The translations under genes and the position numbers were made by a program. The notes below the pieces were generated by a model that was not told the DNA's origin, ran no database searches, and was given only the letters and a program-made list of their open reading frames with translations. This document shows, one piece after another, positions 1 to 20,572 of a DNA stretch of 64,000 bases (its first letter is position 1; every line of letters begins with the position of its first letter). The DNA is from a virus, in the IMG/VR virus record IMGVR_UViG_3300043411_001575, positions 96,001-160,000 of that record. The stretch is one strand, 5' to 3'.

Positions 1-84
1 TATATACGCTGTTATAGCCAGTAGGGATTTTTAGCACAAACGTTTAATCGAAGCACTAAAAGAAAAATTAAAAAAAGAGAAGGG

Positions 85-840
85 ATGGAAATAAATAAAA
101 TATACACAGGAGATAATTTGGAATTGCTTAAAACATTCCCTGATAACACTATTGATTTGATTGTTACCTCACCAAATTATAATAATTGGAGAAACAGAAG
201 AACACAAGCAAGTAGGAAAGATTTTTGGGAACGAACCAATATAACTTATGATAATTGCACAGACAAAGAAGATGATGAAACATATGAAGCAAGGCAAATA
301 GAAATAATAAATGAGATGGTAAGAGTTCTAAAACCAACTGGAACAATTTGCTACAACCACAAAGATAGAATATTTGAATTTGAAGTAAAATCACCTTTGG
401 AATGGATTTTAAAGACAAATGCAAAATACAGACAGAGAATTACATGGGATAGATGTGGTATGCAAGCGTATAATCCTGTTAGATTTTATAGGGTTGATGA
501 AGATATTTATATACTTGGAAAAGAAGCAAAGGGATTTACTTGGAATAAAGAAGCTGCAAAGTATTTAAGTATTTGGCGAATTGTTCCAAACAAAAATATT
601 TACGGACATAATGCTACATTTCCAGAAGAACTTGTAAAAAGATGTGTTGAAGCATTTACCAATGAAGGAGATTTGGTTTTAGACCCATACAACGGAACTG
701 GAACAACAACCAAAGTAGCTTATGAGATGAAAAGAAATTTTATCGGAATTGATAATTCTGAAAAATATAATGAAATAGCTGAAACTCGTATTAAAGAGTG
801 CGGTGGGTCTTTTTTTAATTTTTCTAACGAAAATGATTAA
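85..840 (+). CDS. DNA methyltransferase, beta class (N4C/N6A), cassette 1
   Basis: Motif IV TSPNY precedes motif I DPYNGTGTT; HNATFP. Confidence 0.9.
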   Translation: MEINKIYTGDNLELLKTFPDNTIDLIVTSPNYNNWRNRRTQASRKDFWERTNITYDNCTDKEDDETYEARQIEIINEMVRVLKPTGTICYNHKDRIFEFEVKSPLEWILKTNAKYRQRITWDRCGMQAYNPVRFYRVDEDIYILGKEAKGFTWNKEAAKYLSIWRIVPNKNIYGHNATFPEELVKRCVEAFTNEGDLVLDPYNGTGTTTKVAYEMKRNFIGIDNSEKYNEIAETRIKECGGSFFNFSNEND

Positions 841-866
841 TCGAAGCACTTCACCCCTATTGGCTA

Positions 867-957
867 TAACGGTGGCGATTGGCGAAGTAAAAGCATTTCA
901 CTGCTGCTGATGGTTATCACTATGCTCAATGGCTTTTATTTTGCCAATTGCGTGTTA
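867..957. repeat. attC-like hairpin H1
   Basis: TAACG..GCGATTGGCGAAGTAAAAGC / GCTTTTATTTTGCCAATTGC..TGTTA. Confidence 0.85.
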
Positions 958-1024
958 GCTGCTGTTTTTTTTCTCTTTGATTGTCAGTACTTTAGAAAAT
1001 AATTTAAAAATATCTTTGAAAATG

Positions 1025-1055
1025 TTTGCAGATTCAAAATAATGTTGTATCTTTG
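1025..1055 (+). promoter_or_regulatory. Bacteroidota-type primary sigma promoter in cassette 2
   Basis: TTTG-N19-TATCTTTG. Confidence 0.7.
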
Positions 1056-1079
1056 TTCTACAATTAAAAACAAAATAAA

Positions 1080-1277
1080 ATGACAAATTTGAATGAAATA
1101 GAAGTAACAGTAAAGGGTAACGATAGTATCACAGGTAGCGAAAGTTGGGTATCTAATTTAGAAAACTTAAAAAGTTGGGAACTCACAAATGATGAGATAA
1201 ACGAAATAATAGAGGGCAAAACAGTTAAATGTATATCTCCAAATGGTAGAAGAATTATATGGATAACAAAAAAGTAA
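1080..1277 (+). CDS. hypothetical protein, cassette 2
   Basis: ORF directly after promoter, A-rich leader. Confidence 0.7.
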   Translation: MTNLNEIEVTVKGNDSITGSESWVSNLENLKSWELTNDEINEIIEGKTVKCISPNGRRIIWITKK

Positions 1278-1423
1278 AAAGAGGTGGTAAACGCAAAAAT
1301 GCTGGTGCTAAACCTAAATACTCGGAGCTAACTAAAACGGTTGCCTTTCGCTGTCCATTGTCAAAGGTTGATGAACTGAAAATAGTTGTCAAGTCTAAAC
1401 TTTCGGAGTGGTCGGTAAAATAG
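1259..1423 (+). CDS. small ribbon-helix-helix-like DNA-binding protein (54 aa, not in ORF track)
   Basis: MDNKKVKRGGKRKNAGAKPKYSELTKTVAFRCPLSKVDELKIVVKSKLSEWSVK; paralogs in cassettes 5, 8, 12. Confidence 0.75.
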   Translation: MDNKKVKRGGKRKNAGAKPKYSELTKTVAFRCPLSKVDELKIVVKSKLSEWSVK

Positions 1424-1427
1424 CAGC

Positions 1428-1517
1428 TAACGGTTTGCAGCTAACAGAAGTGGCTGCTTGTAAGAACTTCTGAATTAAAAACAAATGCTTTGCAGCCATT
1501 TTTGTTAGGTGCTGTTA
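1428..1517. repeat. attC-like hairpin H2
   Basis: CTAACAGAAGTGGCTGC / GCAGCCATTTTTGTTAG arms between TAACG and TGTTA. Confidence 0.85.
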
Positions 1518-1542
1518 TAAGCTGTAAAATAAAATTTGAGCG

Positions 1543-1716
1543 ATGGACACATACTTAAAATATTTAGATACAGATGAAATGAGGCTCATTATGGATGTGC
1601 AAAAAACACTTCCACAAAAAGGCTTTACTTACATAAGAGATGAAAAGAAAATAGGCAGAAATGAGCCTTGTAAATGCGGAAGCAATAGGAAGTACAAAAA
1701 ATGCTGTGGTGCGTAG
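1543..1716 (+). CDS. SEC-C motif (zinc-binding) protein, 57 aa, cassette 3 (not in ORF track)
   Basis: C-terminus [22 protein letters not shown] matches the SEC-C consensus GRNxPCxCGSxxKYKxCC. Confidence 0.8.
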
Positions 1717-1737
1717 GCAATTTTATTTTATTGCTTA

Positions 1738-1827
1738 TAACGTAGCGGGGCTTTGCGTAGTAGCCCTTAGTAGAAACTTAAAATTAACCACGACACTTGA
1801 TAGGGCTATTACGCAAAACCCTTGTTA
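1738..1827. repeat. attC-like hairpin H3
   Basis: TTTGCGTAGTAGCCCT / AGGGCTATTACGCAAA. Confidence 0.85.
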
Positions 1828-1848
1828 TGTGCCGTTTTTATTCGGATT

Positions 1849-2403
1849 ATGAAAAAGTATCAAATAATATATTCAGACCCAGCGTGGCGATTTGGTAATT
1901 CTGTTTATCAAGACAACAATAGAGATAACAGACATTTGCAAGACCAATATCAAACAATGACCATAGAACAATTAAAAGAATTACCACTTGCAAATATTTC
2001 TGCTGATGATTGTGCTTTGTTTTTATGGACAACAGACTTTCATTTACCTTTTTGTTTTGAATTATTTAAAGCGTGGGGTTTCAAATATAGAACTATTGCT
2101 TTTGTATGGAAAAAAGTAACTAAAAACGGTAAAACTTGTGCAAACTTGGGAGCGTGGACTATGAAAAATACAGAAATATGTTTATTGGCTACAAAAGGAA
2201 ATATGTTTAATAAAAGGAAAGTGAAGAATATATTTCAATTAGTTGAAGCAGAAAGAACTAAGCATAGTAAAAAACCACAAGAGGTAAGGGATAGGATAGA
2301 AAAACTATTTGGAGAATGTGAAAGACTTGAAATGTTTGCTCGTGAAAAGCACGAAGGCTGGGATGTTTGGGGAAATGAAGTTGAGAGTAGTGTCACTCTT
2401 TAA
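1849..2403 (+). CDS. MT-A70 family adenine methyltransferase, cassette 4
   Basis: YQIIYSDPAW, LFLWTT, WGFKY, HSKKP, LEMFAR, GWDVWGNE; ATG at 1849 preferred over the track start. Confidence 0.9.
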   Translation: MKKYQIIYSDPAWRFGNSVYQDNNRDNRHLQDQYQTMTIEQLKELPLANISADDCALFLWTTDFHLPFCFELFKAWGFKYRTIAFVWKKVTKNGKTCANLGAWTMKNTEICLLATKGNMFNKRKVKNIFQLVEAERTKHSKKPQEVRDRIEKLFGECERLEMFAREKHEGWDVWGNEVESSVTL

Positions 2404-2412
2404 AATGGCACA

Positions 2413-2474
2413 TAACGGTTTGCAGCTAAACGCTGATTTTGTTCTTCACAAAATTTGCGATTTAGGTGCTGTTA
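2413..2474. repeat. attC-like hairpin H4 (short)
   Basis: TAACGGTTTGCAGCTAAA..TTTAGGTGCTGTTA. Confidence 0.8.
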
Positions 2475-2551
2475 TGTATCAGTTTATTTTTTACTTTTTT
2501 GCGTTGGCTTTCAATTAGTTACACAATTTAACAAAAATAATCTTGAAATTG

Positions 2552-2582
2552 TTTGCAGATTCAAAATATAGCCGTATATTTG
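2552..2582 (+). promoter_or_regulatory. Bacteroidota-type promoter in cassette 5
   Basis: TTTG-N19-TATATTTG. Confidence 0.7.
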
Positions 2583-2602
2583 TATCAACAAAACGAAACA
2601 AC

Positions 2603-3004
2603 ATGGAAACAATTGAAAAAAAAATATTAGGATTCACAGAAGAAATAACAGTTTGTGATTGCTGTGGTAAGGCTGATTTAAAAGGAACTTACGCTATTGA
2701 TTGGGAAGGTACAATTGCATATTACGGAAGCGTTTGTGCTTTTAAAGTGCATGGTGCTACTATTGAAGAGCAAAAGGAAGTGAAGAAAGCATACACTAAA
2801 AGAATGAAAGCGACTGAAAAATTAGCACAAATGGAAGCTGAATACAATGGAACACAATATGCTTTAGTAAAAATGTTTCGTTTTGTTGAAGAGAAGAAAT
2901 TGGATGTAATGGCTTTCATTAATAAATACGGAAAAAAATGTGATGAGAACGATTATTACATTGCTTACGAAATTGGACACGTTGTAAAATGTATAGACAA
3001 ATGA
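2603..3004 (+). CDS. hypothetical Cys-motif protein, cassette 5
   Basis: CDCCGK..YYGSVCA; ATG at 2603 follows the promoter. Confidence 0.7.
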   Translation: METIEKKILGFTEEITVCDCCGKADLKGTYAIDWEGTIAYYGSVCAFKVHGATIEEQKEVKKAYTKRMKATEKLAQMEAEYNGTQYALVKMFRFVEEKKLDVMAFINKYGKKCDENDYYIAYEIGHVVKCIDK

Positions 3005-3297
3005 AAGAATGTACAATGTGCGCTTTAAAAGAGCCTGAATTTAAAAAGTGCATTTTTAGCGATTGCCCTAATGGTGTAAATTTTGTAACCTGCGATTGTG
3101 GAGAGAAAATTTACAACACGGATGGCAAAAAAGCGAAGTGCAAAAAATGCAAACCACATGGAGGTAAAAGGCTAAATGCAGGACGAAAAAGCCAATACAA
3201 AGAAGAAACGCAAACAATTTCTTTCCGTGTACCAAAATCACTAATTGAACCGATTACAAAATACGTCAAACGTGCGCTGGCAAAAAGTAAAAAATAA
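3001..3297 (+). CDS. Cys-rich protein with C-terminal RHH-like domain, cassette 5
   Basis: HGGKRLNAGRK..TISFRVPKSLIEPI. Confidence 0.7.
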   Translation: MKECTMCALKEPEFKKCIFSDCPNGVNFVTCDCGEKIYNTDGKKAKCKKCKPHGGKRLNAGRKSQYKEETQTISFRVPKSLIEPITKYVKRALAKSKK

Positions 3298-3305
3298 ATT
3301 GTACA

Positions 3306-3393
3306 TAACGTTTTGCGTATATGAGAAGTGGCACTTGCACAAACTTGAAATTTAGCACAAATGTTTCTGTGCCATTTCTTATATACGCTGTTA
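3306..3393. repeat. attC-like hairpin H5 (identical to H9)
   Basis: GCGTATATGAGAAGTGGCAC / GTGCCATTTCTTATATACGC. Confidence 0.9.
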
Positions 3394-3495
3394 TGTGTAG
3401 TTGCGGTTTAATAGCAGGGAGTTCAATTTGAAATGAGATACTTTTTCTTTTCTTTTTTGAGCGATGGCAAAAATAAATTTGAAAAATTTAAAAAT

Positions 3496-4308
3496 ATGAT
3501 TGATATAAACAAGAATTACAATGAAAGTAATTTAGAAACAATGGCAAAGATGCCTGATTGCTTTGTAGATTTAACAGTAACATCTCCACCTTATGATGGA
3601 TTGCGAACTTATAATGGATATTCATTTCCATTTGAAGATATTGCAAAGGAGTTGTTTAGAATTACAAAAGATGGTGGCGTATTAGTTTGGGTTATTTCAG
3701 ATGCTACCGTTCAAGGAAATGAAAGCGGAACATCATTTAAACAAGCCTTATATTTCAAAGAGATTGGTTTTAATTTGCACGACACAATGATTTGGATTAA
3801 AGACGGTGGTGGTGCAGTAGGAAGCAATAAGTGTTACACACAAAACTTTGAATATATGTTTGTGTTTTCAAAAGGAAAAATAAATACTACAAATCTAATT
3901 TATGATAAACCAAACGCTTCTTTTGGTAAAGATAAAAGCGGAGTAGGTAGAAGATTGGTAACTGGTGAACACAAAATAGAAAAGCGTAAACCAAGTGCCG
4001 AATTTAGTAGAAGAAACAACTATTGGTATATCGCACCACAAAAAGGCGAACACCCTGCGGTATTCCCAGAAGCACTTGCAAATGACCATATTTTAAGTTG
4101 GAGTAATGAGAATGACTTAATTTATGACCCATTTATGGGAAGTGGTACAACCGCTAAAATGAGTATTCTAAATAACAGAAATTGGATAGGCAGTGAATTA
4201 TCCTCTGAATACTGTGATATGATTGTGCAACGAATTAAAAAAGCGTTGGAAGAAAAAAGAAAAGAAAAAGATTTAATAGCAAACTCTTTATTTGGAAACG
4301 ACTTTTAG
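3496..4308 (+). CDS. DNA methyltransferase, beta class, cassette 6
   Basis: TSPPY, HPAVFP, DPFMGSGTT. Confidence 0.92.
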   Translation: MIDINKNYNESNLETMAKMPDCFVDLTVTSPPYDGLRTYNGYSFPFEDIAKELFRITKDGGVLVWVISDATVQGNESGTSFKQALYFKEIGFNLHDTMIWIKDGGGAVGSNKCYTQNFEYMFVFSKGKINTTNLIYDKPNASFGKDKSGVGRRLVTGEHKIEKRKPSAEFSRRNNYWYIAPQKGEHPAVFPEALANDHILSWSNENDLIYDPFMGSGTTAKMSILNNRNWIGSELSSEYCDMIVQRIKKALEEKRKEKDLIANSLFGNDF

Positions 4309-4318
4309 CAATTACACA

Positions 4319-4415
4319 TAACGTTTTGCGGCTTTGCGTTCGGTTTTTTGCCTTATCCGAATGTCCAAATTTAGCACAATGTTTAAAGGCAAAAACTGAC
4401 GCAAAACCGATGTTA
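4319..4415. repeat. attC-like hairpin H6
   Basis: TTTGCGTTCGGTTTTTTGCCTT / AAGGCAAAAACTGACGCAAA. Confidence 0.85.
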
Positions 4416-4489
4416 TAAGCTGGCTGCGGTTTATTAAACGAAAAGCTAAATACGAAGCACTAAAGAAAAGAATTTAAAAAAAGGAAGGG

Positions 4490-5308
4490 ATGGAAATAAA
4501 TAAAATATACAACGAAAATTGCCTTGAAACGATGGCTAAAATGCCTGACAATTTCATTGACTTAACGGTTACTTCTCCGCCTTATGACGATTTAAGAACA
4601 TACAATGGATATTGTTTTGACTTTGAAAATGTAGCAAAAGAATTGTTTAGAGTAACAAAACAAGGTGGTGTAGTTGTTTGGATTGTAAACGATAGCACAA
4701 AAAACGGTAGTGAAAGTTTAACATCATTTAAACAGGCTATTTATTTTGTTGGTTGTGGGTTTAATTTGCACGATACTATGATTTACAAAAAGAAAAATCC
4801 GATACCACTAAACCATAATAGATATGAGCAAAGTTTTGAATATATGTTTGTTTTTAGCAAGGGGAAACCGAAAACATTTAACCCTATTATGGAAGATTGT
4901 GTATTTGCTGGGAAAGACATAGTTAAGAACAGAACATTTTACCAAACAGATGAAAGTAAAACAAGTAAAGGACATAAGAATAAACCTATAAAAGAGCAAA
5001 AAATAAAACAGAACATTTTTGAATATTCACTATACGGAGGCAAAAAGGATTTTATACAAGGTGCTGTTTTTCCTGAACAACTTGCAACCGACCAAATAAT
5101 AAGTTGGAGCAATGAAAATGATTTGGTTTATGACCCTTTTATGGGAAGTGGTACAACGGCTAAAATGGCAATTTTGAATAATAGAAAATATATTGGCAGT
5201 GAAATTTCAGAAGATTACTGTAAGATTATCGAAACTCGTATTAAAGAGTGCGGTGGGCTTTTTTTTAATTCTTTTCAAACGGAATTGTCAAACGAAGCAG
5301 GAACGTAG
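4490..5308 (+). CDS. DNA methyltransferase, beta class, cassette 7
   Basis: TSPPY, DPFMGSGTT; paralog of cassette 6. Confidence 0.92.
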   Translation: MEINKIYNENCLETMAKMPDNFIDLTVTSPPYDDLRTYNGYCFDFENVAKELFRVTKQGGVVVWIVNDSTKNGSESLTSFKQAIYFVGCGFNLHDTMIYKKKNPIPLNHNRYEQSFEYMFVFSKGKPKTFNPIMEDCVFAGKDIVKNRTFYQTDESKTSKGHKNKPIKEQKIKQNIFEYSLYGGKKDFIQGAVFPEQLATDQIISWSNENDLVYDPFMGSGTTAKMAILNNRKYIGSEISEDYCKIIETRIKECGGLFFNSFQTELSNEAGT

Positions 5309-5319
5309 CAGCTTGCTTA

Positions 5320-5445
5320 TAACGGTTTCGGGCTTGGCGAAGAAGCGGACTTATACCACTAAAGTTGATACGAAGAACCAATGTTGATGCTACTACAAAT
5401 GTTCATACGAAGCACTAAACCCGCTTTTTTGCCAATACTTTGTTA
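5320..5445. repeat. attC-like hairpin H7 (near-identical to H11)
   Basis: TTGGCGAAGAAGCGG / CCGCTTTTTTGCCAA. Confidence 0.85.
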
Positions 5446-5527
5446 TGCGTTCGCCTTATTTTTTCGTGTTGATTTTCAGCAAGTTAGAAACTATTTTAAA
5501 AATAAATCAAAAATACTTTGAAAAAAG

Positions 5528-5558
5528 TTTGCAGTTATCAAAATAGGTTGTATATTTG
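5528..5558 (+). promoter_or_regulatory. Bacteroidota-type promoter in cassette 8
   Basis: TTTG-N19-TATATTTG. Confidence 0.7.
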
Positions 5559-5587
5559 TACCAGATAACAATTAAAAAATAAACAAA

Positions 5588-5737
5588 ATGACAACAGCAA
5601 CAGTAAAATCAGAAGCAAAATGGAAAACACAATTTCAAATAATGTGGAATAACACACCAAAGAAATTAAGAAGAACCATCTCACAAGTAAACAACATTAA
5701 ATCACAAGCAAAATTATACGCAGCATTATGGATGTAA
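5588..5737 (+). CDS. small hypothetical protein (49 aa), cassette 8
   Basis: ATG at the position equivalent to 8218 in sister cassette 12. Confidence 0.6.
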   Translation: MTTATVKSEAKWKTQFQIMWNNTPKKLRRTISQVNNIKSQAKLYAALWM

Positions 5738-5949
5738 CAGCAAAAATGGAGCAGGGCAATATAAAAGCCCTGTTCCCCAACTTAGGAATGGAAGTAATTA
5801 CAAATGGCTGTGTTTGCCAAATTATTCAAATCTCATCTCAACAAATCAAAGTCGAAATAACCGAAGCAATAAACCCGATGTATAAAGTTGGAAATCAAAT
5901 TTGGGTTGATAGCTTTTTAATACCATCCGATGAAAAAGAAAAAAACTAA
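5728..5949 (+). CDS. hypothetical protein, cassette 8
   Basis: ORF overlapping both neighbours. Confidence 0.6.
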   Translation: MDVTAKMEQGNIKALFPNLGMEVITNGCVCQIIQISSQQIKVEITEAINPMYKVGNQIWVDSFLIPSDEKEKN

Positions 5950-6097
5950 TAGAGGTGGAGTTCGGGATGGGGCTGGTAGAAAAAAAGCAGACTACGAAAC
6001 AAAAACTATTTCCTTTCGTGTTCGTCTTGAATTTGTAGAACCGATTAAAAAGATGGTCAAGGATTATGTTTCGGAGCGTCTTAAAGGTGACGCATAA
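5930..6097 (+). CDS. small RHH-like DNA-binding protein (55 aa), cassette 8
   Basis: RGGVRDGAGRKKADYETKTISFRVRLEFVEPIKKMV; stop codon is the TAA of TAAC. Confidence 0.75.
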   Translation: MKKKKTNRGGVRDGAGRKKADYETKTISFRVRLEFVEPIKKMVKDYVSERLKGDA

Positions 6098-6214
6098 CGT
6101 TCGAGGGCTTGGCGAAGTGGCTGAACCTGAAGCTAAATAGAATTACTAAACTTAAAAATTAAGAACGAATGATTGATAGAATTACTGAACAGCCATTTTG
6201 CCAAACCCGTGTTA
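6095..6214. repeat. attC-like hairpin H8, contains the start codon of the next gene
   Basis: TTGGCGAAGTGGCTG / CAGCCATTTTGCCAA; same family as H17, H18, H25. Confidence 0.9.
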
Positions 6215-6939
6215 GTGGCAGTACTTTTGTGAATGCTGATTGCTTTGATGTTTTTCCTTTTATCGAGGATAAATCAATTGATGCTATTATTGCCGATTTG
6301 CCTTATGGAACTACTCAAAATAAATGGGATAGTATTTTGCCACTTAATAAACTTTGGAAAGAATACAAGCGGATTTTAAAAGATAGTGGTTGTGTTGTTC
6401 TTTTTGCTCAAACTCCATTTGACAAAGTACTTGGTTGTTCAAATTTAGATTGGTTAAAATACGAATGGATTTGGGATAAAAAACTTGGAAGTGGTTCTTT
6501 GAATGTAAAAAAAATGCCTTTAAAAAGACACGAAAATATATTAGTATTTAGCAAAGGGAAAACCACATATAATCCACAAATGACAAAAGGTAAATTTAGA
6601 AATAAAAGTACAAGTAAGCCATCATCTAATAAAGGTAATTACGGAGAAATAACACACCAAAAAGATAATTTTAATGATGATTATTATCCAACCACTATTT
6701 TAGAATTTACTAATGCAAATGTAAGAGCAAGGGTTCATCCAACTGAAAAACAATTATCTCTTATGGAATACCTTGTAAAAACATACACAAACGAAGGCGA
6801 TACAGTTTTAGATAATACAATGGGTTCAGGAACAACAAACTTGGCTTGTATCAAATTAAATCGCAAATCAATTGGAATTGAAAAGGAAAAACAATATTAC
6901 GATGTCGCTGTTCGGAGGGCTTCGGAGTATTGCCACTAA
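6169..6939 (+). CDS. DNA methyltransferase, beta class, cassette 9
   Basis: DLPY, HPTEK, DNTMGSGTT. Confidence 0.9.
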   Translation: MIDRITEQPFCQTRVSGSTFVNADCFDVFPFIEDKSIDAIIADLPYGTTQNKWDSILPLNKLWKEYKRILKDSGCVVLFAQTPFDKVLGCSNLDWLKYEWIWDKKLGSGSLNVKKMPLKRHENILVFSKGKTTYNPQMTKGKFRNKSTSKPSSNKGNYGEITHQKDNFNDDYYPTTILEFTNANVRARVHPTEKQLSLMEYLVKTYTNEGDTVLDNTMGSGTTNLACIKLNRKSIGIEKEKQYYDVAVRRASEYCH

Positions 6940-7024
6940 CGTTTTGCGTATATGAGAAGTGGCACTTGCACAAACTTGAAATTTAGCACAAATGTTTCTG
7001 TGCCATTTCTTATATACGCTGTTA
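6937..7024. repeat. attC-like hairpin H9
   Basis: identical to 3306-3393. Confidence 0.9.
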
Positions 7025-7121
7025 TGCCCTCGTTGCGGTAATTTTAGAACTAACTTCAATCGAAGCACTAAGGCATTTTTATTCTTTTTGTGGGAGGGTT
7101 GAAAACTTTTTTAAAATAACA

Positions 7122-7152
7122 CTTGCTAATTAGCAAAATATAGTTACTTTTG
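7122..7152 (+). promoter_or_regulatory. Bacteroidota-type promoter in cassette 10
   Basis: CTTG-N19-TACTTTTG. Confidence 0.6.
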
Positions 7153-7188
7153 TAACGCAATAATGCAGAAAACTAAAATTTAAAAACA

Positions 7189-7419: not shown

Positions 7420-7421
7420 CT

Positions 7422-12997: not shown

Positions 12998-13117
12998 TAA
13001 CGTTCGAGGGCTTGGCGAAGTGGCTGAACCTGAAGCTAAATAGAATTACTAAACTTAAAAATTAAGAACGAATGATTGATATAATTACTGAACAGCCATT
13101 TTGCCAAACCCGTGTTA
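12998..13117. repeat. attC-like hairpin H17, contains start codon
   Basis: near-identical to H8. Confidence 0.9.
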
Positions 13118-13881
13118 GTGGCAGTACTTTTGTGAATGCTGATTGCTTTGATGTTTTTCCTTTTATCGAGGATAAATCAATTGATGCTATTATTTGCGAT
13201 TTGCCCTATGGAACAACTCAATGTAAATGGGATAGCATTATTAATTTAGATTTGATGTGGACGCAATACAACAGAATAATAAAAGATAACGGCATTTTTA
13301 TATTATTTGCAGATGAGCCTTTTACAAGCATATTAATAAATAGTAACATTAAAAATTTTAAGCAAAGAATAACTTGGGATAAACAAATAGCAGGAGGTCA
13401 TTTAAACGCTAAAAAAATGCTATTGAAAAGAACTGAGGATATATGCTTATTTTCAAATGTTAAAAATGGAAAATATACATACAATCCTATTTTAAAAGAT
13501 AAGGATTTTAAAAACATAAGAGATAGAAACGGAGAAAACAGAAAAGAGTTTAAAGGCGGTTATGTAGGGAAACACAATAGTACGTTGAGTAAAGAGCATA
13601 ACAATAAAAAAAGTTACCCAGATAATTTAATTTCCTTTTCAGCAAGAAAAGGCGATTGTAACCCTATAAATAGATTACACCCAACACAAAAACCACTTGA
13701 ATTGATGGAATATCTTATAAAAACCTATACTAATGAGGGCGATTTGGTTTTAGATAACACAATGGGTTCTGGAACAACAATTTTAGCTGCTATAAAAAAT
13801 AATAGAATTGGTATAGGAATTGAAAAGGAAAAACAATATTATGATGTCGCTGTTCGTAGGGCTTCGGAGTATTGCCACTAA
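13072..13881 (+). CDS. DNA methyltransferase, beta class, cassette 18
   Basis: DLPY, HPTQKP, DNTMGSGTT. Confidence 0.9.
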   Translation: MIDIITEQPFCQTRVSGSTFVNADCFDVFPFIEDKSIDAIICDLPYGTTQCKWDSIINLDLMWTQYNRIIKDNGIFILFADEPFTSILINSNIKNFKQRITWDKQIAGGHLNAKKMLLKRTEDICLFSNVKNGKYTYNPILKDKDFKNIRDRNGENRKEFKGGYVGKHNSTLSKEHNNKKSYPDNLISFSARKGDCNPINRLHPTQKPLELMEYLIKTYTNEGDLVLDNTMGSGTTILAAIKNNRIGIGIEKEKQYYDVAVRRASEYCH

Positions 13882-13998
13882 CGTTATCGGGCTTGGCGAA
13901 GTGGCTGAACCCGAAGCTAAATAGAATTACTAAACTTAAAAATTAAAAACGAATGTCAAATAGAATTACAGAACAGCCATTTTGCCAAACCAGTGTTA
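13879..13998. repeat. attC-like hairpin H18, contains start codon
   Basis: H8 family. Confidence 0.9.
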
Positions 13999-14711
13999 GT
14001 GGCAGTACTTTTGTAAATGCTGATTGCTTTGATGTTTTTCCTTTTATTGAGGACAAATCAATTGATGCTATTATTTGCGATTTGCCTTATGGAACTACTG
14101 CTTGTAAGTGGGATACAATTATACCATTTGAGCCGCTATGGGAGCAGTACAAGCGAGTGATTAAACCTAATGGTGCGATAGTGCTGTTTAGCAAAGAGCC
14201 ATTTACGTGCATATTGAGAACAAGTGAAATTAAAATTTTTAAGCAACCTCTTATTTGGGATAAGGTTAATTCAGATAACCCTATGCAGGCAAAAAGAAGA
14301 CATCTAAACACTACGGAGGATATTTCTATCTTTTACAAATCTCAATGTACTTATAACCCACAAGGTCTTATAAAGTCAAATATAAAAAAGGGAGGGAAGC
14401 AAGGGATAATGATTGATAGTAGTGGTAAGGAAAAAGAACAATATATTCAAGAGAATACCAATTATCCGAAAAATATATTAGTGTACCCGATAGAAAGAAA
14501 GGCGGTTCATCCAACTCAAAAACCCGAAGCACTCCTGCAATACTTAGTCAAAACCTACACTAACGAAGGCGATATAGTCTTAGATAACTGTATGGGTTCA
14601 GGTACAACAAATCTTGCTTGTTTAAAATTAAATCGCAAATCAATTGGAATAGAAAAGGAAAAACAATATTACGATGTCGCTGTTCGTAGGGCTTCTGAGT
14701 ATTGCCACTAA
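13953..14711 (+). CDS. DNA methyltransferase, beta class, cassette 19
   Basis: DLPY, HPTQKP, DNCMGSGTT. Confidence 0.9.
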   Translation: MSNRITEQPFCQTSVSGSTFVNADCFDVFPFIEDKSIDAIICDLPYGTTACKWDTIIPFEPLWEQYKRVIKPNGAIVLFSKEPFTCILRTSEIKIFKQPLIWDKVNSDNPMQAKRRHLNTTEDISIFYKSQCTYNPQGLIKSNIKKGGKQGIMIDSSGKEKEQYIQENTNYPKNILVYPIERKAVHPTQKPEALLQYLVKTYTNEGDIVLDNCMGSGTTNLACLKLNRKSIGIEKEKQYYDVAVRRASEYCH

Positions 14712-14765
14712 CGGTATCCGTATAAGGGAAGTGCGAGGAACGAGCATTTACTTTATACGGTGTTA
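14709..14765. repeat. attC-like hairpin H19 (shortest, 57 bp)
   Basis: CCGTATAAGG / CTTTATACGG. Confidence 0.85.
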
Positions 14766-14856
14766 GCAAAGTGCGTTGGGATTGTGTGTCGGCTCGTTCC
14801 AAAACCATTTATTTTCTTTTTTTTGGGGAGGTTTTGAAAACTTTTTTACTAAAATA

Positions 14857-14887
14857 CTTGCTAAATGACAATTTATATTTATCTTTG
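14857..14887 (+). promoter_or_regulatory. Bacteroidota-type promoter in cassette 20
   Basis: CTTG-N19-TATCTTTG. Confidence 0.6.
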
Positions 14888-14918
14888 AACCATATTAATA
14901 ATCTAAAAACAAAACAAA

Positions 14919-15230
14919 ATGATTTACAAAAAAACACACTATGATAAAAAGGCTTTAAACAGCCACGTTTCAAAAATAAAAGATGCAGGAGGAAATGCAA
15001 TAGTAGATGGATTATCGGTTAGATATTTCTATCCATCCAATACCATTGGTGAAATTAGATTAAAGCATAAGAGTTGGAAGAAAACAGAAAGACAAGAAGT
15101 TTTGTTTATTGTTTTAGTTTCTGAAAAAGATAAAACGCCATACTATTCAGCAATGTATTTCCCGAAATGGGTTGAAATAGGAGGTGTTTATGGAAACAAA
15201 AATGACATAACAATAATCGAAAAGTTTTAA
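14919..15230 (+). CDS. hypothetical protein, cassette 20
   Basis: ORF after promoter. Confidence 0.7.
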   Translation: MIYKKTHYDKKALNSHVSKIKDAGGNAIVDGLSVRYFYPSNTIGEIRLKHKSWKKTERQEVLFIVLVSEKDKTPYYSAMYFPKWVEIGGVYGNKNDITIIEKF

Positions 15231-15232
15231 CT

Positions 15233-15388
15233 ATGAAACTGTCTGTAACAGAATATGCAAAACAGCTTGGCGTAACTCGTCAAGCCGTTTTGTTACAAAT
15301 TAAAGAAAAAAGGTTGCCTAAAAATGTGAAGGTTGAAAAAATCGGAAATACTTATTCTTTAACTGTGGGTGGGCAAAAAAGAAAATAA
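15233..15388 (+). CDS. small HTH DNA-binding protein (51 aa, not in ORF track), cassette 20
   Basis: MKLSVTEYAKQLGVTRQAVLLQIKEKRLP, paralog of 7422-7607. Confidence 0.75.
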   Translation: MKLSVTEYAKQLGVTRQAVLLQIKEKRLPKNVKVEKIGNTYSLTVGGQKRK

Positions 15389-15407
15389 ATGGTTTTGGAA
15401 TGTTTGC

Positions 15408-15497
15408 TAACGTATGGTGCTATGAGCAGGTTTGCCTTGCAGAAATGTTCAAATTTAGCACTAATGTTATTGGCAAACTTGCTTATAGCACGTGTTA
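15408..15497. repeat. attC-like hairpin H20
   Basis: GTGCTATGAGCAGGTTTGCC / GGCAAACTTGCTTATAGCAC. Confidence 0.88.
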
Positions 15498-15533
15498 GCG
15501 GTAGTTTATTTTTCAAAAATTAAAATTAAAAAT

Positions 15534-15992
15534 ATGGGAACACAAGTAGTAGGAGAAAGTAACAGCGTTGAGTATAGCACTCCGTTGAAAATAGTACAGC
15601 CATTGATAAACGAATTTGGCTTAACAAGAGATGTTTGTGCAAGTGAATTAAACCACAAACTACCCGATTATTGGACAAAAGAAGATAATTCACTTGCTAT
15701 GAATTGGAAAGGTAATTGTTGGATGAACCCACCATTTAGCAGAGATTTGAATAAGTGGGTAAAGAAAGCGTGTAATGATGCTGAAAGGTTTGGAGGAACG
15801 AAAGTTTGTTTAATACCTGTAAGAAGCAATACAAAATGGTGGGCGGAAGTTTGTGTAAAAGCAGAAATTCGTTTTATCAATGGCGAAGTAAATTTTAATG
15901 ATGAAGAACGTGGACTTTGGTTGCCGATGTGTATTATCATTTTCGGTGAGAAGGCAAAGGTTGGCACGTTCTCTGTCTTAAATTACCGCTAA
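15534..15992 (+). CDS. phage Dam-like N6-adenine methyltransferase, cassette 21
   Basis: YSTP, DVCAS, WMNPPFS, LIPVRSNTKWW, EIRFI. Confidence 0.88.
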   Translation: MGTQVVGESNSVEYSTPLKIVQPLINEFGLTRDVCASELNHKLPDYWTKEDNSLAMNWKGNCWMNPPFSRDLNKWVKKACNDAERFGGTKVCLIPVRSNTKWWAEVCVKAEIRFINGEVNFNDEERGLWLPMCIIIFGEKAKVGTFSVLNYR

Positions 15993-16062
15993 CGTTTTGC
16001 AGCTAACAGAAGGCGGCTTTTTAGCAAACTTAGTACTTGCCGCTTTTTGTTAGCTGCTGTTA
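15990..16062. repeat. attC-like hairpin H21
   Basis: GCAGCTAACAGAAGGCGGC / GCCGCTTTTTGTTAGCTGC. Confidence 0.88.
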
Positions 16063-16120
16063 GTGGACTGTTAAATTATTAAAAAAGAAAAAAGGAGGGG
16101 TGCGAGGGCATCTAAACATA

Positions 16121-16957
16121 ATGGACAAGAAGAAACTTTTAATTGCTTTTAGTGGTGGAGAAACATCTGCATTTATGGCTCAATGGTTATGGAAACATAA
16201 ACAAGGTGAATACGAAATGTTATTTGCTTTTGCTAATACTGGGGTTGAGAATGAAGAAACTTTAAACTTTGTGCATAAATGCGAAGTTGAATTTGGTATA
16301 AATGTTAATTGGTTGGAAGCAGTAATAGACCAAGAGAAAGGGAAAGGCACAAGGCATAAGATTGTTGATTACAAAACAGCAAGTAGAAACGGACAACCAT
16401 TTGAGGAACTGATAAAGAAATACGGTTTACCAAACCAACAGCGATTTCACTGCACAAGGGAGTTAAAAAATAATACATTGATTTCATTTGCAAAAAGTAT
16501 TTGGGGAAAGGAAAAGTATTATTTAGCAATAGGAATTAGAGTAGATGAATTTGATAGGATGAATGATAAATTTAAAGAGTTGAGAATTGTTTATCCGTTA
16601 ATTTCAGAAATTCCAATGACAAAGCCAAAGATTAATTTTTGGTGGAAACAACAACCGTTTAGATTAGAATTAAAAGGTTATCAAGGGAATTGTGTTACTT
16701 GCTACAAAAAAAGTGATAAAAAATTGTTTCAGATAGCTAAAGAAAATCCAAGTGCATTTGATTTCTTTGATAGAATGGAAGAACAATATGGAGAAGGTAA
16801 GTATCAATTTTTTAGGCAGAACCGAACAGCTAAACAAATTATGGAACAAGCTAAAGAATGGAATGGCAATGTAACCGATGACGCACAAAATGTTACAATA
16901 CAAACAGATTTATTTAGCGAAAGTTGTGAAGCATTTACAAGCGATTGCGGTGTTTAA
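16121..16957 (+). CDS. PAPS reductase-like (adenine nucleotide alpha hydrolase fold) protein, cassette 22
   Basis: PP-loop FSGGETSA, FANTG, CTRELK, IGIRVDE, YPL, NCVTC. Confidence 0.85.
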   Translation: MDKKKLLIAFSGGETSAFMAQWLWKHKQGEYEMLFAFANTGVENEETLNFVHKCEVEFGINVNWLEAVIDQEKGKGTRHKIVDYKTASRNGQPFEELIKKYGLPNQQRFHCTRELKNNTLISFAKSIWGKEKYYLAIGIRVDEFDRMNDKFKELRIVYPLISEIPMTKPKINFWWKQQPFRLELKGYQGNCVTCYKKSDKKLFQIAKENPSAFDFFDRMEEQYGEGKYQFFRQNRTAKQIMEQAKEWNGNVTDDAQNVTIQTDLFSESCEAFTSDCGV

Positions 16958-17026
16958 CCTTTTCACAGTTTTGAAAAAACTGAAAGAGTGCGTGGGCTTT
17001 TTCTTTTTTAATAATTTAATTGCCAC

Positions 17027-17152
17027 TAACGGTTCGCAGGTATATTTAGTTGCGGACTTAGTAACACAAAACTTTAAATTTAGAAGAAATGAAGAAAGAA
17101 GAACAAAACTCGAATGAACCACAAAAACCGCAATTGAATATACCTGCTGTTA
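17027..17152. repeat. attC-like hairpin H22, contains start codon
   Basis: GCAGGTATATTTAGTTGCGG / CCGCAATTGAATATACCTGC. Confidence 0.9.
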
Positions 17153-17445
17153 GTTGCAGTGTTGTTCATTGCAAGAAAGCACCTTATGATGTTTATATTG
17201 GAAGACCAAGCAAATGGGGTAATCCATTCACACACATAAAAGACGGTAAAACACTTGCAAAACATATTGTAGGTAGTAGAGATGAAGCAGTCGAAGCATA
17301 TCTTGAATGGATTACCAACGGAGAAGGTAAACATTTGATGAGTGATTTACACGAATTGAAAGATAAGGTGCTTGGTTGTTGGTGTCATCCACAATCTTGT
17401 CACGGAGATGTACTTTCGGAGTTGGTTGCTAAACATTGCAACTAA
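17089..17445 (+). CDS. DUF4326-like protein, cassette 23
   Basis: VYIGRPSKWGNPF..LGCWCHPQSCHGDVL. Confidence 0.85.
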   Translation: MKKEEQNSNEPQKPQLNIPAVSCSVVHCKKAPYDVYIGRPSKWGNPFTHIKDGKTLAKHIVGSRDEAVEAYLEWITNGEGKHLMSDLHELKDKVLGCWCHPQSCHGDVLSELVAKHCN

Positions 17446-17567
17446 CGTTTTGCAGGTATATTTAGTGCCGAATTTAAAAACGAAAAATATGAATTTTATA
17501 CAAAAGTTATTTAAAAGCAGAAAGGTTAATGAACCGATGAACTCGGCATTGAATATACCTGTTGTTA
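17443..17567. repeat. attC-like hairpin H23, contains start codon
   Basis: CAGGTATATTTAGTGCCGA / TCGGCATTGAATATACCTG. Confidence 0.9.
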
Positions 17568-17791
17568 TACCTCGTTTATCTTCTGATTGGATAAAATTTG
17601 AGGATGAAAAACCACCACACGAAGTAGTATTAGCTGCTTGCGATACTTATGATTGTGGATGGACTATGGATACTGTTTGGTGGTATGAAGATAAGCAATG
17701 TTGGATGGTTACTGGTGCAGTTAAAAGTACAGAAGCACATTTACCATACACACATTGGCGTAAATTACCACCATTTCCAAATGAGGTATAA
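17489..17791 (+). CDS. DUF551-like protein, cassette 24
   Basis: WIKFEDEKPP..VLA..THWRKLPPFP. Confidence 0.75.
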   Translation: MNFIQKLFKSRKVNEPMNSALNIPVVIPRLSSDWIKFEDEKPPHEVVLAACDTYDCGWTMDTVWWYEDKQCWMVTGAVKSTEAHLPYTHWRKLPPFPNEV

Positions 17792-17914
17792 CGTATTGGT
17801 GCTATACGAAGGAGGCGATTATTAGCACTAAATTTGATGCGGAGTACAAATGTTTGTTTAACCACAAATGTTTCTGCGGAGTACCAAACCGCCTCTTTTG
17901 TATAGCACGTGTTA
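17789..17914. repeat. attC-like hairpin H24
   Basis: GTGCTATACGAAGGAGGCG / CGCCTCTTTTGTATAGCAC. Confidence 0.88.
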
Positions 17915-17978
17915 TACGCTGGCACGGTTGATTAAACGAGAAACTTAAATTGAAACACAAAACAAAATTTTTATTAAA

Positions 17979-18764
17979 ATGAGCGAGGGCAAAAAAGAAA
18001 TATTATTAGGAGATTGTTTGGAACTTATGAAGGATATACCAAACGGAAGTATTGATATGATACTTTGTGATTTACCATACGGAACAACTGCTTGTAAATG
18101 GGATAGTGTAATACCTTTTGAACCACTTTGGAAAGAATATGAAAGGATTATAAAGACCAATGGTGCTATTTTATTGTTTGGAACACAACCATTCACAACA
18201 GAACTAATATTGAGCAATAGAAAATTGTTTAAGTATGATATGGTTTGGTGCAAAGACAAACCTGCTGACTTCGGAAATGGCAATATAAAACCATTAAGAT
18301 ACCACGAAACAATTTGTGTATTTTATACCAAAACGCCAACATACAATAAGCAATTTGAAAGCAGAAAAGGAACTGGCTATTCAAGGGCTAAATATCCTGT
18401 AAATTACATAAACAATTCAGAGCATAAATTTGGAATGAAAGATGGTTCTTTTGATTATGCAAATAAAGACAGAATGATTGGAACTGTAATAGATATTACA
18501 ACTGGTGCAAGAGGTAGCATAAAACACCCAACAGTAAAGCCCGTTCCTTTATTTGAACATTTAATCAAAACATATACCAACGAAGGTGAATTGGTTTTAG
18601 ATAATACAGCAGGAAGCGGAACAACTGCAATTGCTTGTTTGAATACTAAAAGGCAATTTATAGTAATGGAAAAAGAACAAAAGTATTACGATATGATTTT
18701 AAAAAGGGTGGGAGATTTTAATAAAAATTTTGAACCGCAAACTCTCTTTGGAAACGAAATGTAG
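17979..18764 (+). CDS. DNA methyltransferase, beta class, cassette 25
   Basis: GDCL, DLPY, HPTVKP, DNTAGSGTT. Confidence 0.9.
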   Translation: MSEGKKEILLGDCLELMKDIPNGSIDMILCDLPYGTTACKWDSVIPFEPLWKEYERIIKTNGAILLFGTQPFTTELILSNRKLFKYDMVWCKDKPADFGNGNIKPLRYHETICVFYTKTPTYNKQFESRKGTGYSRAKYPVNYINNSEHKFGMKDGSFDYANKDRMIGTVIDITTGARGSIKHPTVKPVPLFEHLIKTYTNEGELVLDNTAGSGTTAIACLNTKRQFIVMEKEQKYYDMILKRVGDFNKNFEPQTLFGNEM

Positions 18765-18774
18765 TGCTTGCGTA

Positions 18775-18894
18775 TAACGGTATCGGGCTTGGCGAAGTGG
18801 CTGAACCGAATGTTTGATAGAAGCACAAAACTTAATAATTAAAAACGAATGATTGATAGAATTACTGAACAGCCATTTTGCCAAACCCGTGTTA
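18775..18894. repeat. attC-like hairpin H25, contains start codon
   Basis: H8 family stems. Confidence 0.9.
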
Positions 18895-19643
18895 TGTGCA
18901 GGGCGGTTGATAACCTTGAACTCCTTTTGTCGCAACCTGATGAAAGTGTAGATTTGATTTACTGTGATATTCTTTATGGAACGGGTAGGAATTTCGGTGA
19001 TTACCAAGACTTAAAACCAATTAGAAGCGAAATAGAAAGCCACTACCTACCAAGACTTATTGAAATGAAACGAGTTTTAAAAAGTACAGGTAGTATTTAT
19101 TTGCAAATGGATACACGAATAAACCATTGGATGCGCATTTTGATGGATGATGTTTTTGGGTATGAAAATTTCCGCAATGAAATAGTATTTGGATATAATG
19201 GGGGTGGTGTTTCAAAGAATTGTTATCCTAAAAAACACGACATAATCTTGTTTTATTCTGTTAGTGATAAATACTATTTTAATAACGAAAAGAAACCATA
19301 CTCCGCTTTAAGTTCACAAAACTTATTGTGGAAACATAGGAATAAAAAAAGACTTGATGAACTTAATGATGGCACACCTGTAACCGATGTATGGACTGAT
19401 TTGAAGTTTAAAATAAATTACCAAGAGGAAGAATATACAGGATATGCTACCCAAAAAACAAAAGAATTATTGAGCCGTATTGTTTTAGCTTCCACAAATG
19501 AAGGCGATACAGTTGCAGATTATTATTTAGGTAGTGGCACAACGGCAGTAGTTTGTAAGGAACTGAACCGAAATTTTATAGGTTGCGATATTAATCCAAA
19601 AGCTATTGAAATAACAAATGCTCGTTTAGATGCACTTTCGTAG
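18849..19643 (+). CDS. DNA methyltransferase, beta class, cassette 26
   Basis: DLIYCDILY (variant motif IV), FRNEIV, YATQK, DYYLGSGTT. Confidence 0.85.
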   Translation: MIDRITEQPFCQTRVMCRAVDNLELLLSQPDESVDLIYCDILYGTGRNFGDYQDLKPIRSEIESHYLPRLIEMKRVLKSTGSIYLQMDTRINHWMRILMDDVFGYENFRNEIVFGYNGGGVSKNCYPKKHDIILFYSVSDKYYFNNEKKPYSALSSQNLLWKHRNKKRLDELNDGTPVTDVWTDLKFKINYQEEEYTGYATQKTKELLSRIVLASTNEGDTVADYYLGSGTTAVVCKELNRNFIGCDINPKAIEITNARLDALS

Positions 19644-19702
19644 CTTTGCACATAACGTGTATTTAATGGAATGGAGTGTCAAAATCAATTAGTTACATAA
19701 TA
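19640..19702. other. putative attI-like primary recombination site
   Basis: Last TAACG (19653-19657) is followed by the integrase gene instead of a hairpin and TGTTA. Confidence 0.55.
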
Positions 19703-20572
19703 ATGGAAGATAAAATTAACAAATTAAGGAGGGAGTTATCCATAAGGAAATATGCTCCTAATACAGTTGAAACATATTGTTCATGTCTTAAAGTTATTTT
19801 TAGTAAATGTGGAATTAATCCAAGTATTGATTCTTTAAAGTCATATTTATTAACTATTGAAAATAGAAACTACCATAAACAAATAGTCGCTACATTCAGA
19901 AACTACTCTGAATTTGTATTAGGTATTAAATTATCTTTAAACGATGTTCCTTATCCTAGAAAACAAGAAAGTTTGCCTGAAATATATTCAGTTGAAGAGG
20001 TTTCTAAATTAATTAATATTCCTAAAAATTTAAAACATCAATCTATAATTTTTTTATTGTATGGATGTGGACTTAGAGTTAGTGAATTAATTAATTTAAA
20101 ATTAACTGATATAGATAGTGATAGAATGGTTGTTAACATCCGAAAAGCAAAAGGAAATAAGGACAGGCAAATAATGTTGGATGAATCTTTACTTAAATTA
20201 CTTCGTGATTATTACACTGAATATAAACCAATAAATTATTTATTCAATGGTCAAAAAAAAGACCAATATAGTGACAGGTCTGTAAATGAACTTCTTAAAT
20301 ATTGGTCTAAAAAAGCAGGTATAAAAAAACATATTCATGCTCATTTATTAAGGCATTCATTCGCTACCCATCTTTTAGATGCAGGAATAGACATGGCTAT
20401 AATTCAAAAGTTATTAGGTCATTCAAACATAAAAACAACGCAAATTTATGCAAAAATTTCAACCAAATTAATATCTCAAATTAAATCTCCATTATCAAAC
20501 ATTAAAATCAATTCAAATGAAAAATCTAGTAATATTATTCCTTTGTGGAATTCTGATAGGTTTCCAAACTAA
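19703..20572 (+). CDS. tyrosine recombinase (integron-integrase-like, no IntI insertion)
   Basis: N-terminal SAM-like RKYAPNTVETY; catalytic GLRVSE, KGNKDR, HLLRHSFATH, LGHSNIKTTQIY; alternative GTG start at 19676. Confidence 0.93.
   Translation: MEDKINKLRRELSIRKYAPNTVETYCSCLKVIFSKCGINPSIDSLKSYLLTIENRNYHKQIVATFRNYSEFVLGIKLSLNDVPYPRKQESLPEIYSVEEVSKLINIPKNLKHQSIIFLLYGCGLRVSELINLKLTDIDSDRMVVNIRKAKGNKDRQIMLDESLLKLLRDYYTEYKPINYLFNGQKKDQYSDRSVNELLKYWSKKAGIKKHIHAHLLRHSFATHLLDAGIDMAIIQKLLGHSNIKTTQIYAKISTKLISQIKSPLSNIKINSNEKSSNIIPLWNSDRFPN

Follow-up and report, generated by a model that had tools for sequence, protein, structure and literature searches.

A candidate integron-like gene-capture array, rich in DNA methyltransferase cassettes and adjoining a Xer-like tyrosine recombinase, in a large phage genome

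The DNA considered here is a 64,000-nt stretch, termed the window, which comprises bases 96,001-160,000 of one 169,658-bp contig, the IMG/VR virus record IMGVR_UViG_3300043411_001575, which is linear and has a CheckV completeness of 82%. Positions refer to the window unless they are marked as genome positions, which count along the whole 169,658-bp record. The first part of the window is occupied by an array of gene cassettes separated by imperfect hairpins that resemble the attC sites of integrons. It contains 25 complete hairpins of 57-126 nt, every one reading TAACG...TGTTA on the + strand, and 26 cassettes (C22 to C47), and these counts agree with those of the initial annotation of this DNA. 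The extent given there holds for the window part (1-19656) but not for the array as such, which is cut by the window edge and is twice as long as noted: it begins 18.6 kb upstream of that edge and spans genome 77,359-115,656 (window -18,641 to 19,656), that is 38.3 kb or ~23% of the record, with 46 hairpins of 57-130 nt and at least 47 cassettes. The sites, junction and recombinase are as follows, complete hairpins being identified by fold and covariance model unless another basis is stated.

1-19656, +, cassette array, window part (C22 to C47), from hairpins and covariance model
1-14, +, 3' end of hairpin h21 (hairpin start: 73 nt upstream of the window)
867-957, +, attC-like hairpin h22
1428-1517, +, attC-like hairpin h23
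1738-1827, +, attC-like hairpin h24
2413-2474, +, attC-like hairpin h25
3306-3393, +, attC-like hairpin h26
4319-4415, +, attC-like hairpin h27
5320-5445, +, attC-like hairpin h28
6095-6214, +, attC-like hairpin h29; the downstream methyltransferase frame starts within its loop
6937-7024, +, attC-like hairpin h30
7626-7715, +, attC-like hairpin h31
7950-8074, +, attC-like hairpin h32
8625-8713, +, attC-like hairpin h33
9569-9693, +, attC-like hairpin h34
10422-10536, +, attC-like hairpin h35
10825-10912, +, attC-like hairpin h36
11727-11813, +, attC-like hairpin h37
12998-13117, +, attC-like hairpin h38
13879-13998, +, attC-like hairpin h39
14709-14765, +, attC-like hairpin h40, the shortest (57 nt)
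15408-15497, +, attC-like hairpin h41
15990-16062, +, attC-like hairpin h42
17027-17152, +, attC-like hairpin h43
17443-17567, +, attC-like hairpin h44
17789-17914, +, attC-like hairpin h45
18775-18894, +, attC-like hairpin h46, the last
19650-19702, +, attI-like junction: hairpin-less ACATAAC half-site (19650-19656), then spacer AAAATCAATTAGTTACA
19703-20572, +, Xer/IntI-like tyrosine recombinase without the IntI insertion (PF00589, E 1.9e-43)

Alignment of 44 hairpins shows TAAC and TGTTA to be invariant and, by RNAalifold, identifies 20 conserved base pairs, 14 of which display compensatory double changes; the attC-like conservation of fold over sequence to which the initial annotation pointed is thereby upheld. 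In these sites TAAC-G is paired with T-GTTA, with a G.T pair in 43 of 44, four bases are unpaired after TAACG on the 5' side only, and a stem of ~20 bp with recurrent G.T wobbles carries a loop of 5-85 nt. As a consequence of the wobbles, 44 of the 46 phage sites fold better on the + strand than on the complementary one. No single extrahelical G or T was seen, the conserved 4-nt bulge and the G.T wobbles being present instead. All 46 sites have the properties by which attC sites are classically recognised, namely a length within ~57-141 nt, AAC/GTT cores and a conservation of structure over sequence. Within the 170-kb record the matches of a covariance model built from the hairpins are confined to the array and all lie on the + strand, except for one weak reverse-strand echo of a near-palindromic site, and Rfam holds no family for the hairpins. 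Repeats of the repetitive extragenic palindrome (REP) or miniature inverted-repeat transposable element (MITE) kind were considered and rejected, given that the sites are restricted to the array, where each gene has one and all share an orientation.

The boundaries of the cassettes carry a signal of their own. In 43, 41, 40, 41 and 42 of the 47 cassettes, respectively, positions 1 to 5 behind GTTA can pair with the corresponding positions ahead of the cassette's own terminal TAAC; in the control, in which the two flanks of one and the same hairpin are compared, complementarity is found in only 26, 13 and 9 of 46. This cassette-end complementarity is the footprint of an integron-type crossover, since a crossover inside the core would leave the R box of a cassette split between its two ends. 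Beyond position 5, complementary bases are present in 25/47 cassettes at position 6, 2/47 at position 7 and 32/47 at position 8, and a circularised cassette would have a conserved mismatch in its extended R stem.

When the array is compared with itself by BLAST, blocks of homology start at -1/0 of TAAC or stop at +4 to +7 of TAAC, and none stops at GTTA. Given that the blocks break at TAAC and never at GTTA, the hairpin belongs to the downstream open reading frame (ORF), and the repeated unit runs C-hairpin-ORF-TAA, with the boundary between the TAA and the C of the box. Several methyltransferase frames open within the loop of the upstream hairpin. In L012 and L014, which represent one related phage sampled twice and have an identical recombinase, a hairpin and a methyltransferase are held in common and the DNA before them is unrelated, the break falling exactly 5' of CCTAAC. 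The TAA of TAAC had been proposed as the stop codon of ten cassettes, and an open frame of at least 40 codons does end there in ten cassettes of the window. The genes thus read towards the recombinase, a polarity which, judged from the sequence, is the mirror image of that of classical integrons. A hairpin-bounded cassette in a related phage (L112:2094-2770) has the ends GTTATAACC and GGTTATAAC, and a homologue of its gene, 76% identical, lies in the present record at genome 8,848-9,375 (L003), without hairpins and 68 kb from the array; the pairing of a cassette gene with a plain homologue may bear on the birth or fixation of cassettes.

The gene at which the array ends does encode a tyrosine recombinase, as had been claimed, and is the only PF00589 gene on the record; its open frame starts with GTG at 19676, and its relatives start at the ATG at 19703. 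In the profile ranking archaeal XerA scores best, followed by XerD, XerC and then IntI, every match lying below the curated cut-off (NF040815 XerA_Arch 206 bits against 220, XerD 171 against 330, XerC 163 against 335, and TIGR02249, matched in two pieces, 155 against 265). The protein is collinear with XerA of P. abyssi. In comparison with VchIntIA (2a3v), residues 80-178 correspond to 81-179 and residues 204-275 to 248-319, leaving 25 residues where IntIA has 68, and an AlphaFold model (predicted local distance difference test, pLDDT, 86) has a short loop at 175-190 where the IntI-specific domain would be; among solved structures the model most resembles IntI4 and XerA, which are almost tied. 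The catalytic R, K, H, R, H and Y positions are invariant in the alignment of the clade. Given that the recombinase lacks the IntI-specific insertion, the system is not a classical integron. No dif-like 28-bp site turned up, no search aimed at dif having been made.

Directly before the recombinase gene, the last cassette ends at ACATAACG (19650-19657). The half-site lies 46 nt from the recombinase start and is followed by a spacer that is conserved among relatives; in six phage loci a TAAC half-site is found 40-46 nt before the start codon, and is followed by a partly conserved spacer. It is suggested from this arrangement that the half-site serves as attI. A degenerate attI pattern gave no match in a scan of the viral contigs, and a plain attI 17-mer gave mostly chance matches, with three real arrays among them.

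A profile search of IMG/VR provided 80 recombinase loci, in which the hairpin model then found 213 sites, almost all of them on the strand of the recombinase and upstream of it. A same-strand array lies upstream of the recombinase in 41 of the 45 informative viral loci; a locus counts as informative when its recombinase is 37% identical or more and no less than 1 kb of sequence precedes it. Of 89 ORFs in the viral arrays, 86 point in the direction of the hairpins, and methyltransferase cassettes recur in these arrays. Three relatives, L009, L111 and L112, have recombinase genes that are ~76% nucleotide-identical to that of this genome: homology begins only at window 19640-19653, and the cassettes upstream are unrelated. 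The comparison among relatives that the initial annotation had proposed thereby shows a complete turnover of cassettes between related phages with the breakpoint at TAAC. The Polaribacter phages Freya and Leef, the best GenBank matches for the recombinase by tblastn, are without an array; a solitary hairpin of similar kind occurs in Leef, and Freya_10 gives a single borderline match to the model (E 0.055).

Pfam and PHROG scans identify ~21 methyltransferase cassettes over the whole array, 14 of which lie in the window, the number originally reported. The N6_N4_Mtase family accounts for 17 genes in the array (11 in the window), with a mutual identity of 20-65%; the others are one of the D12 class, one MT-A70, one Dam (PF05869) and two of the phrog_799 type, so that at least five families appear to be represented. 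The remaining three of the window's 14 are one MT-A70, one Dam (PF05869) and one phrog_799-like. The annotated cargo of the window is listed below.

85-840, +, N6_N4 DNA methyltransferase, C22 (PF01555, E 7e-39)
1025-1055, +, Bacteroidota-type promoter-like motif TTTG-N19-TAnnTTTG, in a small-ORF cassette
1849-2403, +, MT-A70 family methyltransferase, C25 (PF05063, E 1.5e-28)
3433-4308, +, N6_N4 methyltransferase, C27 (Pfam scan)
4490-5308, +, N6_N4 methyltransferase, C28 (Pfam scan)
6169-6939, +, N6_N4 methyltransferase, C30 (Pfam scan)
8751-9545, +, probable methyltransferase, C34 (phrog_799, E 9e-15; phrog_5172, E 9e-33; no Pfam match)
9621-10424, +, N6_N4 methyltransferase, C35 (Pfam scan)
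10976-11716, +, N6_N4 methyltransferase, C37 (Pfam scan)
12125-12922, +, N6_N4 methyltransferase, C38 (Pfam scan)
13072-13881, +, N6_N4 methyltransferase, C39 (Pfam scan)
13953-14711, +, N6_N4 methyltransferase, C40 (Pfam scan)
15492-15992, +, Dam-type N6-adenine methyltransferase, C42 (PF05869, E 2e-22)
16100-16957, +, PAPS-reductase-like protein, C43 (phrog_424, E 9e-43)
17979-18764, +, N6_N4 methyltransferase, C46 (Pfam scan)
18849-19643, +, N6_N4-family methyltransferase, C47, adjoining the recombinase (BLAST cluster with the N6_N4 cassettes)

The methyltransferase of C47 is 49% identical to that of the Polaribacter phage P12002L, the probable methyltransferase of C34 has no PDB relative by sequence, and the PAPS-reductase-like protein of C43 is possibly another DNA-modification enzyme. 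As in the initial annotation, no restriction endonuclease domain was recognised in the cassettes scanned, and the small cassette ORFs gave no family match. Promoter-like motifs similar to that at 1025-1055 (TTTGCAG...TAT(A/C)TTTG) are present at 2552-2582, 5528-5558 and 8157-8187. Since the motif is found in four small-ORF cassettes and is missing from most methyltransferase cassettes, two expression classes within the array are suggested. Several of the small-ORF cassettes have in common, with up to 97% identity, an ORF of 61 aa in which lies a palindrome of 50 nt (CTGTAAC...GTTACAG) (window 7422-7607, L002:8036-8221 and approximately genome 80,931, 89,206, 93,915, 94,749 and 111,246); it has no family match, and a weak match to Rfam STnc390 is probably due to chance.

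Sites of the same type are also present in bacteria. The bacterial sample consists of 151 genomes, all of the class to which a Flavobacterium sp. genome belongs, and its tallies include the unpublished genome G095, on which no specific claim rests. Matches to the hairpin model (E <= 1e-4) were found in 98 of the 151 genomes and a homologue of the recombinase (E <= 1e-40) in 76; 65 genomes have both, 11 the recombinase only, 33 hairpins only and 42 neither. The co-occurrence of sites and recombinase clade, for which a covariance-model search had been recommended, is therefore found both here and in the 41 viral loci described above, and at least 16 of the sampled bacterial genomes have the homologue no more than 10 kb away from the TAAC end of an array. 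The site type is not specific to viruses and is common in chromosomes of the Flavobacterium class.

Three bacterial arrays were studied in detail. All 36 of their cassettes obey the complementarity rule, and both their ORFs and the recombinase are encoded by the complement of the TAACG...TGTTA strand. Nevertheless, it is the TAACG...TGTTA strand that folds better in 33 of 37 bacterial sites. Given that the same strand folds better although the bacterial ORFs lie opposite, the strand asymmetry appears to track the polarity of the site and not transcription, which argues for a function at the level of DNA. The opposite polarity of the ORFs further indicates that phage and bacterial cassettes mirror each other and that the former are not borrowed host arrays, and the methyltransferase cassettes have no match in the sampled bacterial arrays. 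In one bacterial genome, G129, a more distant tyrosine recombinase (36% identity to the query) is present five times, all copies having the same match score, at C1 4,305,279, 4,338,658, 4,372,764, 13,137 and 3,517,470; four are in or beside giant cassette arrays, and the repeated gene could be an element similar to an insertion sequence (IS) or a recombinase carried as a cassette.

The carrier of the array is a large tailed phage of a Bacteroidota host, which is probably flavobacterial. Outside the array, the annotation of the record includes tail-fibre, endolysin and amidase matches, RtcB ligase and HNH genes are present, and the record holds 24 tRNA genes, in minus-strand clusters at genome 44,892-62,318 (L005, L001), alongside which there is a tmRNA-like call (L001:4716-5002). 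The structural region had no megablast match among GenBank phages, and no close GenBank relative was found. A 389-aa ORF at window 29757-30926 (+), inside the phage genome, strongly matches the PHROG transposase family phrog_506 (E 6e-108); the possibility that IS copies flank the array was rejected, given that this ORF and a second one of 389 aa just upstream of the array are unrelated. Backbone genes at window 32704-33645 and 37605-39229 are common to the 118-kb contig L012, the recombinase of which is only 53% identical, and contigs with 76-80% identical recombinases have no neighbouring genes in common with this record. Since the sharing of backbone and the similarity of recombinase do not track each other, the recombinase and its junction may themselves be mobile between phage backbones. 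In related phages with this recombinase, an Acb2/Tad1-like protein against the cyclic-oligonucleotide-based antiphage signalling system (CBASS), a GroES-like Cpn10 and NinG are found downstream (L015:4983-5321 and a sister contig).

Several known systems bear comparison with this array. Integrons such as the superintegron of Vibrio cholerae resemble it in several respects: single-gene cassettes stand in tandem between imperfect palindromes of 57-130 nt, which have AAC/GTT cores and keep their fold while varying in sequence; the R-box complementarity is divided between the two ends of a cassette; an insertion site lacking a hairpin (here a candidate) adjoins the gene of a tyrosine recombinase; one strand folds better; and the cassette content turns over between relatives. 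They differ in that the recombinase here lacks the IntI-specific insertion, which the literature holds to be defining and essential, in that the sites have a 4-nt bulge and G.T wobbles where classical sites have extrahelical bases, and in that the present array is virus-borne with a cargo of mostly methyltransferases. The promoterless cassettes of classical integrons, pointing away from attI, are likewise not matched: the ORFs here are inverted relative to the polarity of the sites and point to the half-site, and four cassettes have promoter-like motifs. Given that the ORFs read towards the recombinase, no Pc-type promoter at attI can drive them. In 'inverted' integrons of the Treponema denticola type, the recombinase gene points in the same direction as the cassette ORFs, which also holds for the bacterial relatives of the present system, but there the enzyme is a true IntI with the insertion and lies upstream of the cassettes, whereas the phage recombinase lies downstream of them. 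Integrons have been described as almost absent from Bacteroidetes (IntegronFinder 2.0 preprint).

The closest published precedent comes from phages themselves. Qi et al. (2023; PMC9892861) reported 17 phage clusters of attC sites lacking integrases (CALINs) with at least two predicted attC sites, one of them in the Polaribacter phage P12002L, where it carries methyltransferases and where one site recombined with attI1 under IntI1 in Escherichia coli; these clusters were interpreted as integron fragments without an integrase. Small phage CALINs with methyltransferases are therefore already published, and they are the only published precedent found; full-text searches, which covered few of the subscription journals, brought up no account of arrays of the Xer type, either in Bacteroidota or in their phages. 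The site family, the methyltransferase cargo and the Bacteroidota host are shared with P12002L. The published clusters, however, comprise 2-3 sites without a recombinase and were seen as stray integron components, in contrast to the at least 47 cassettes, the dedicated recombinase, the attI-like junction and the recurrence of the layout in dozens of viral contigs found here. Judged by the case of P12002L, part of the present array would probably be called a CALIN by IntegronFinder.

A Xer-type enzyme acting on folded DNA would have a parallel. The phage CTX-phi integrates at dif via XerCD, which acts on a hairpin folded from one strand of DNA. The absence of an IntI insertion is common to both cases, and the difference is that CTX-phi undergoes a single integration of the whole phage at dif, as opposed to the movement of cassettes in an array.

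Taken together, the site structure, cassette boundaries, cargo, linkage to the recombinase and turnover among relatives, all of them evident at the level of sequence, suggest an integron-like gene-capture array in a phage genome, the cassettes of which are moved by the adjoining recombinase, and to this a probability of about 0.8 is attached. The proposal of the initial annotation, a recombinase-linked platform of orphan methyltransferases, is supported by the sequence comparisons and has to be modified in that this is not a classical integron and its polarity is mirrored. On the + strand, a cassette would read C-G, the 4-nt bulge, the ~20-bp stem with G.T wobbles, the loop of 5-85 nt, TGTTA, the ORF and TAA. 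Crossover would take place within the TAAC box (GTTA on the other strand) of the folded attC-like sites, the exact bond cleaved being presumed to lie there, and the better-folding + strand, as the strand presumably used, would correspond to the recombinogenic 'bottom' strand of classical attC. The adjacent recombinase, as the likely catalyst, would excise cassettes by recombination between hairpin and hairpin and insert them at the TAAC half-site that lacks a hairpin and precedes the recombinase start codon by 46 nt. Expression of the ORFs, which read towards the recombinase, would be driven by phage promoters upstream or by promoters that lie within cassettes. The orphan methyltransferases would pre-methylate the phage DNA against many host restriction systems, an anti-restriction benefit that is proposed from their families, and the array would then constitute an exchangeable anti-restriction library.

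A number of observations weigh against this proposal. The recombinase, by sequence, lacks the insertion that the field holds essential for attC recombination, and the sites are without classical single extrahelical bases. The complementarity rule is violated by 7 of the 47 cassettes, mostly long ones with several ORFs, which probably hold missed or decayed sites or have undergone other rearrangements. In L017 and L084 several kb of ordinary genes lie between array and recombinase, P12002L carries sites of the same type without a recombinase, and, the record being linear and ~82% complete, a second recombinase could lie off the contig. Cassette recombination is inferred, an excision circle, an empty site or a rearranged read not having been directly observed, and the activity and specificities of the methyltransferases are predictions.

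Some of these observations would be accommodated if the array were a passive CALIN, a fossil or a captured piece of a host array that is moved, if at all, by host enzymes, beside an unrelated recombinase serving lysogeny or dimer resolution. The P12002L sites, which the covariance model matches on both flanks of its methyltransferase and at which the complementarity rule holds, lie in a phage without any recombinase, bacteria of the class possess the same site type, Xer models give the recombinase its best scores, and in L017 and L084 there is a gap between array and enzyme. However, this is unlikely for several reasons: the ORF polarity in viral arrays (86/89) is opposite to that in bacteria, where nearly all ORFs are reversed, and hence the arrays are no simple host copies; the array lies directly upstream of this recombinase clade in 41/45 viral loci; relatives become homologous precisely from the TAAC next to the recombinase gene; and the sampled bacterial arrays hold no matching methyltransferase cassette.

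It is also conceivable that the hairpins punctuate transcripts, as terminators, processing signals or stem-loops of 5' untranslated regions, and that the genes are shuffled by homologous recombination, in the manner of the promoter-early stem-loop (PeSL) terminator-promoter cassettes of T4-type phages, in which repeated stem-loops between small early genes mark the points of exchange. The hairpins are situated on the coding strand, shortly before each ORF, which would suit such a role, as would the G.T wobbles, which in RNA are stable G.U pairs, and the promoter-like motifs of some cassettes. Nevertheless, this is considered very unlikely. PeSL cassettes, whose stem-loops have a T-run and an early promoter behind them, recombine at near-identical regulatory repeats, whereas the stems here are too divergent in sequence for homologous exchange and yet co-vary, no T-run follows them, they belong to no Rfam family, and a recombinase is linked to them. 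Furthermore, the 5-nt complementarity of cassette ends has no explanation in RNA or homologous recombination, and the strand asymmetry is the same in bacterial arrays with ORFs on the other strand. Least probable of all is an assembly chimera, in which a bacterial chromosomal array was wrongly joined to phage contigs: the record is metagenomic and linear, repeated hairpins can mislead assemblers and many related contigs break at the array, but both flanks of the array hold phage-type genes, GC content is even over the junctions, independent assemblies show the same layout in phage backbones (including L012, with backbone genes in common) and the ORF polarity is viral, not bacterial.

Given that gene capture by the adjoining recombinase is preferred over these alternatives, a wider proposal can be considered, which is held with appreciably less confidence yet is still favoured: that Bacteroidota and their phages possess an IntI-independent integron lineage, in which a plain Xer-like recombinase would act on hairpins, and of which the phages would have a mirror-image version serving as a library of anti-restriction methyltransferases and further early genes that can be exchanged rapidly. 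Since both kinds of array share the site type, phage and host arrays could exchange cassettes. Standard integron searches probably overlook such arrays or label them CALINs, and until now phage integrons have been known only as fragments of 2-3 sites (PMC9892861). If the proposal is true, gene capture by recombination of folded DNA would be possible without the IntI domain, which is of relevance to the origin of integrons from Xer-like enzymes and offers a potential new structure-specific recombination system for engineering. It would also mean that viruses themselves operate gene-capture platforms, and would provide a concrete mechanism for the broad anti-restriction repertoires of large phages, and perhaps for a broad host range.

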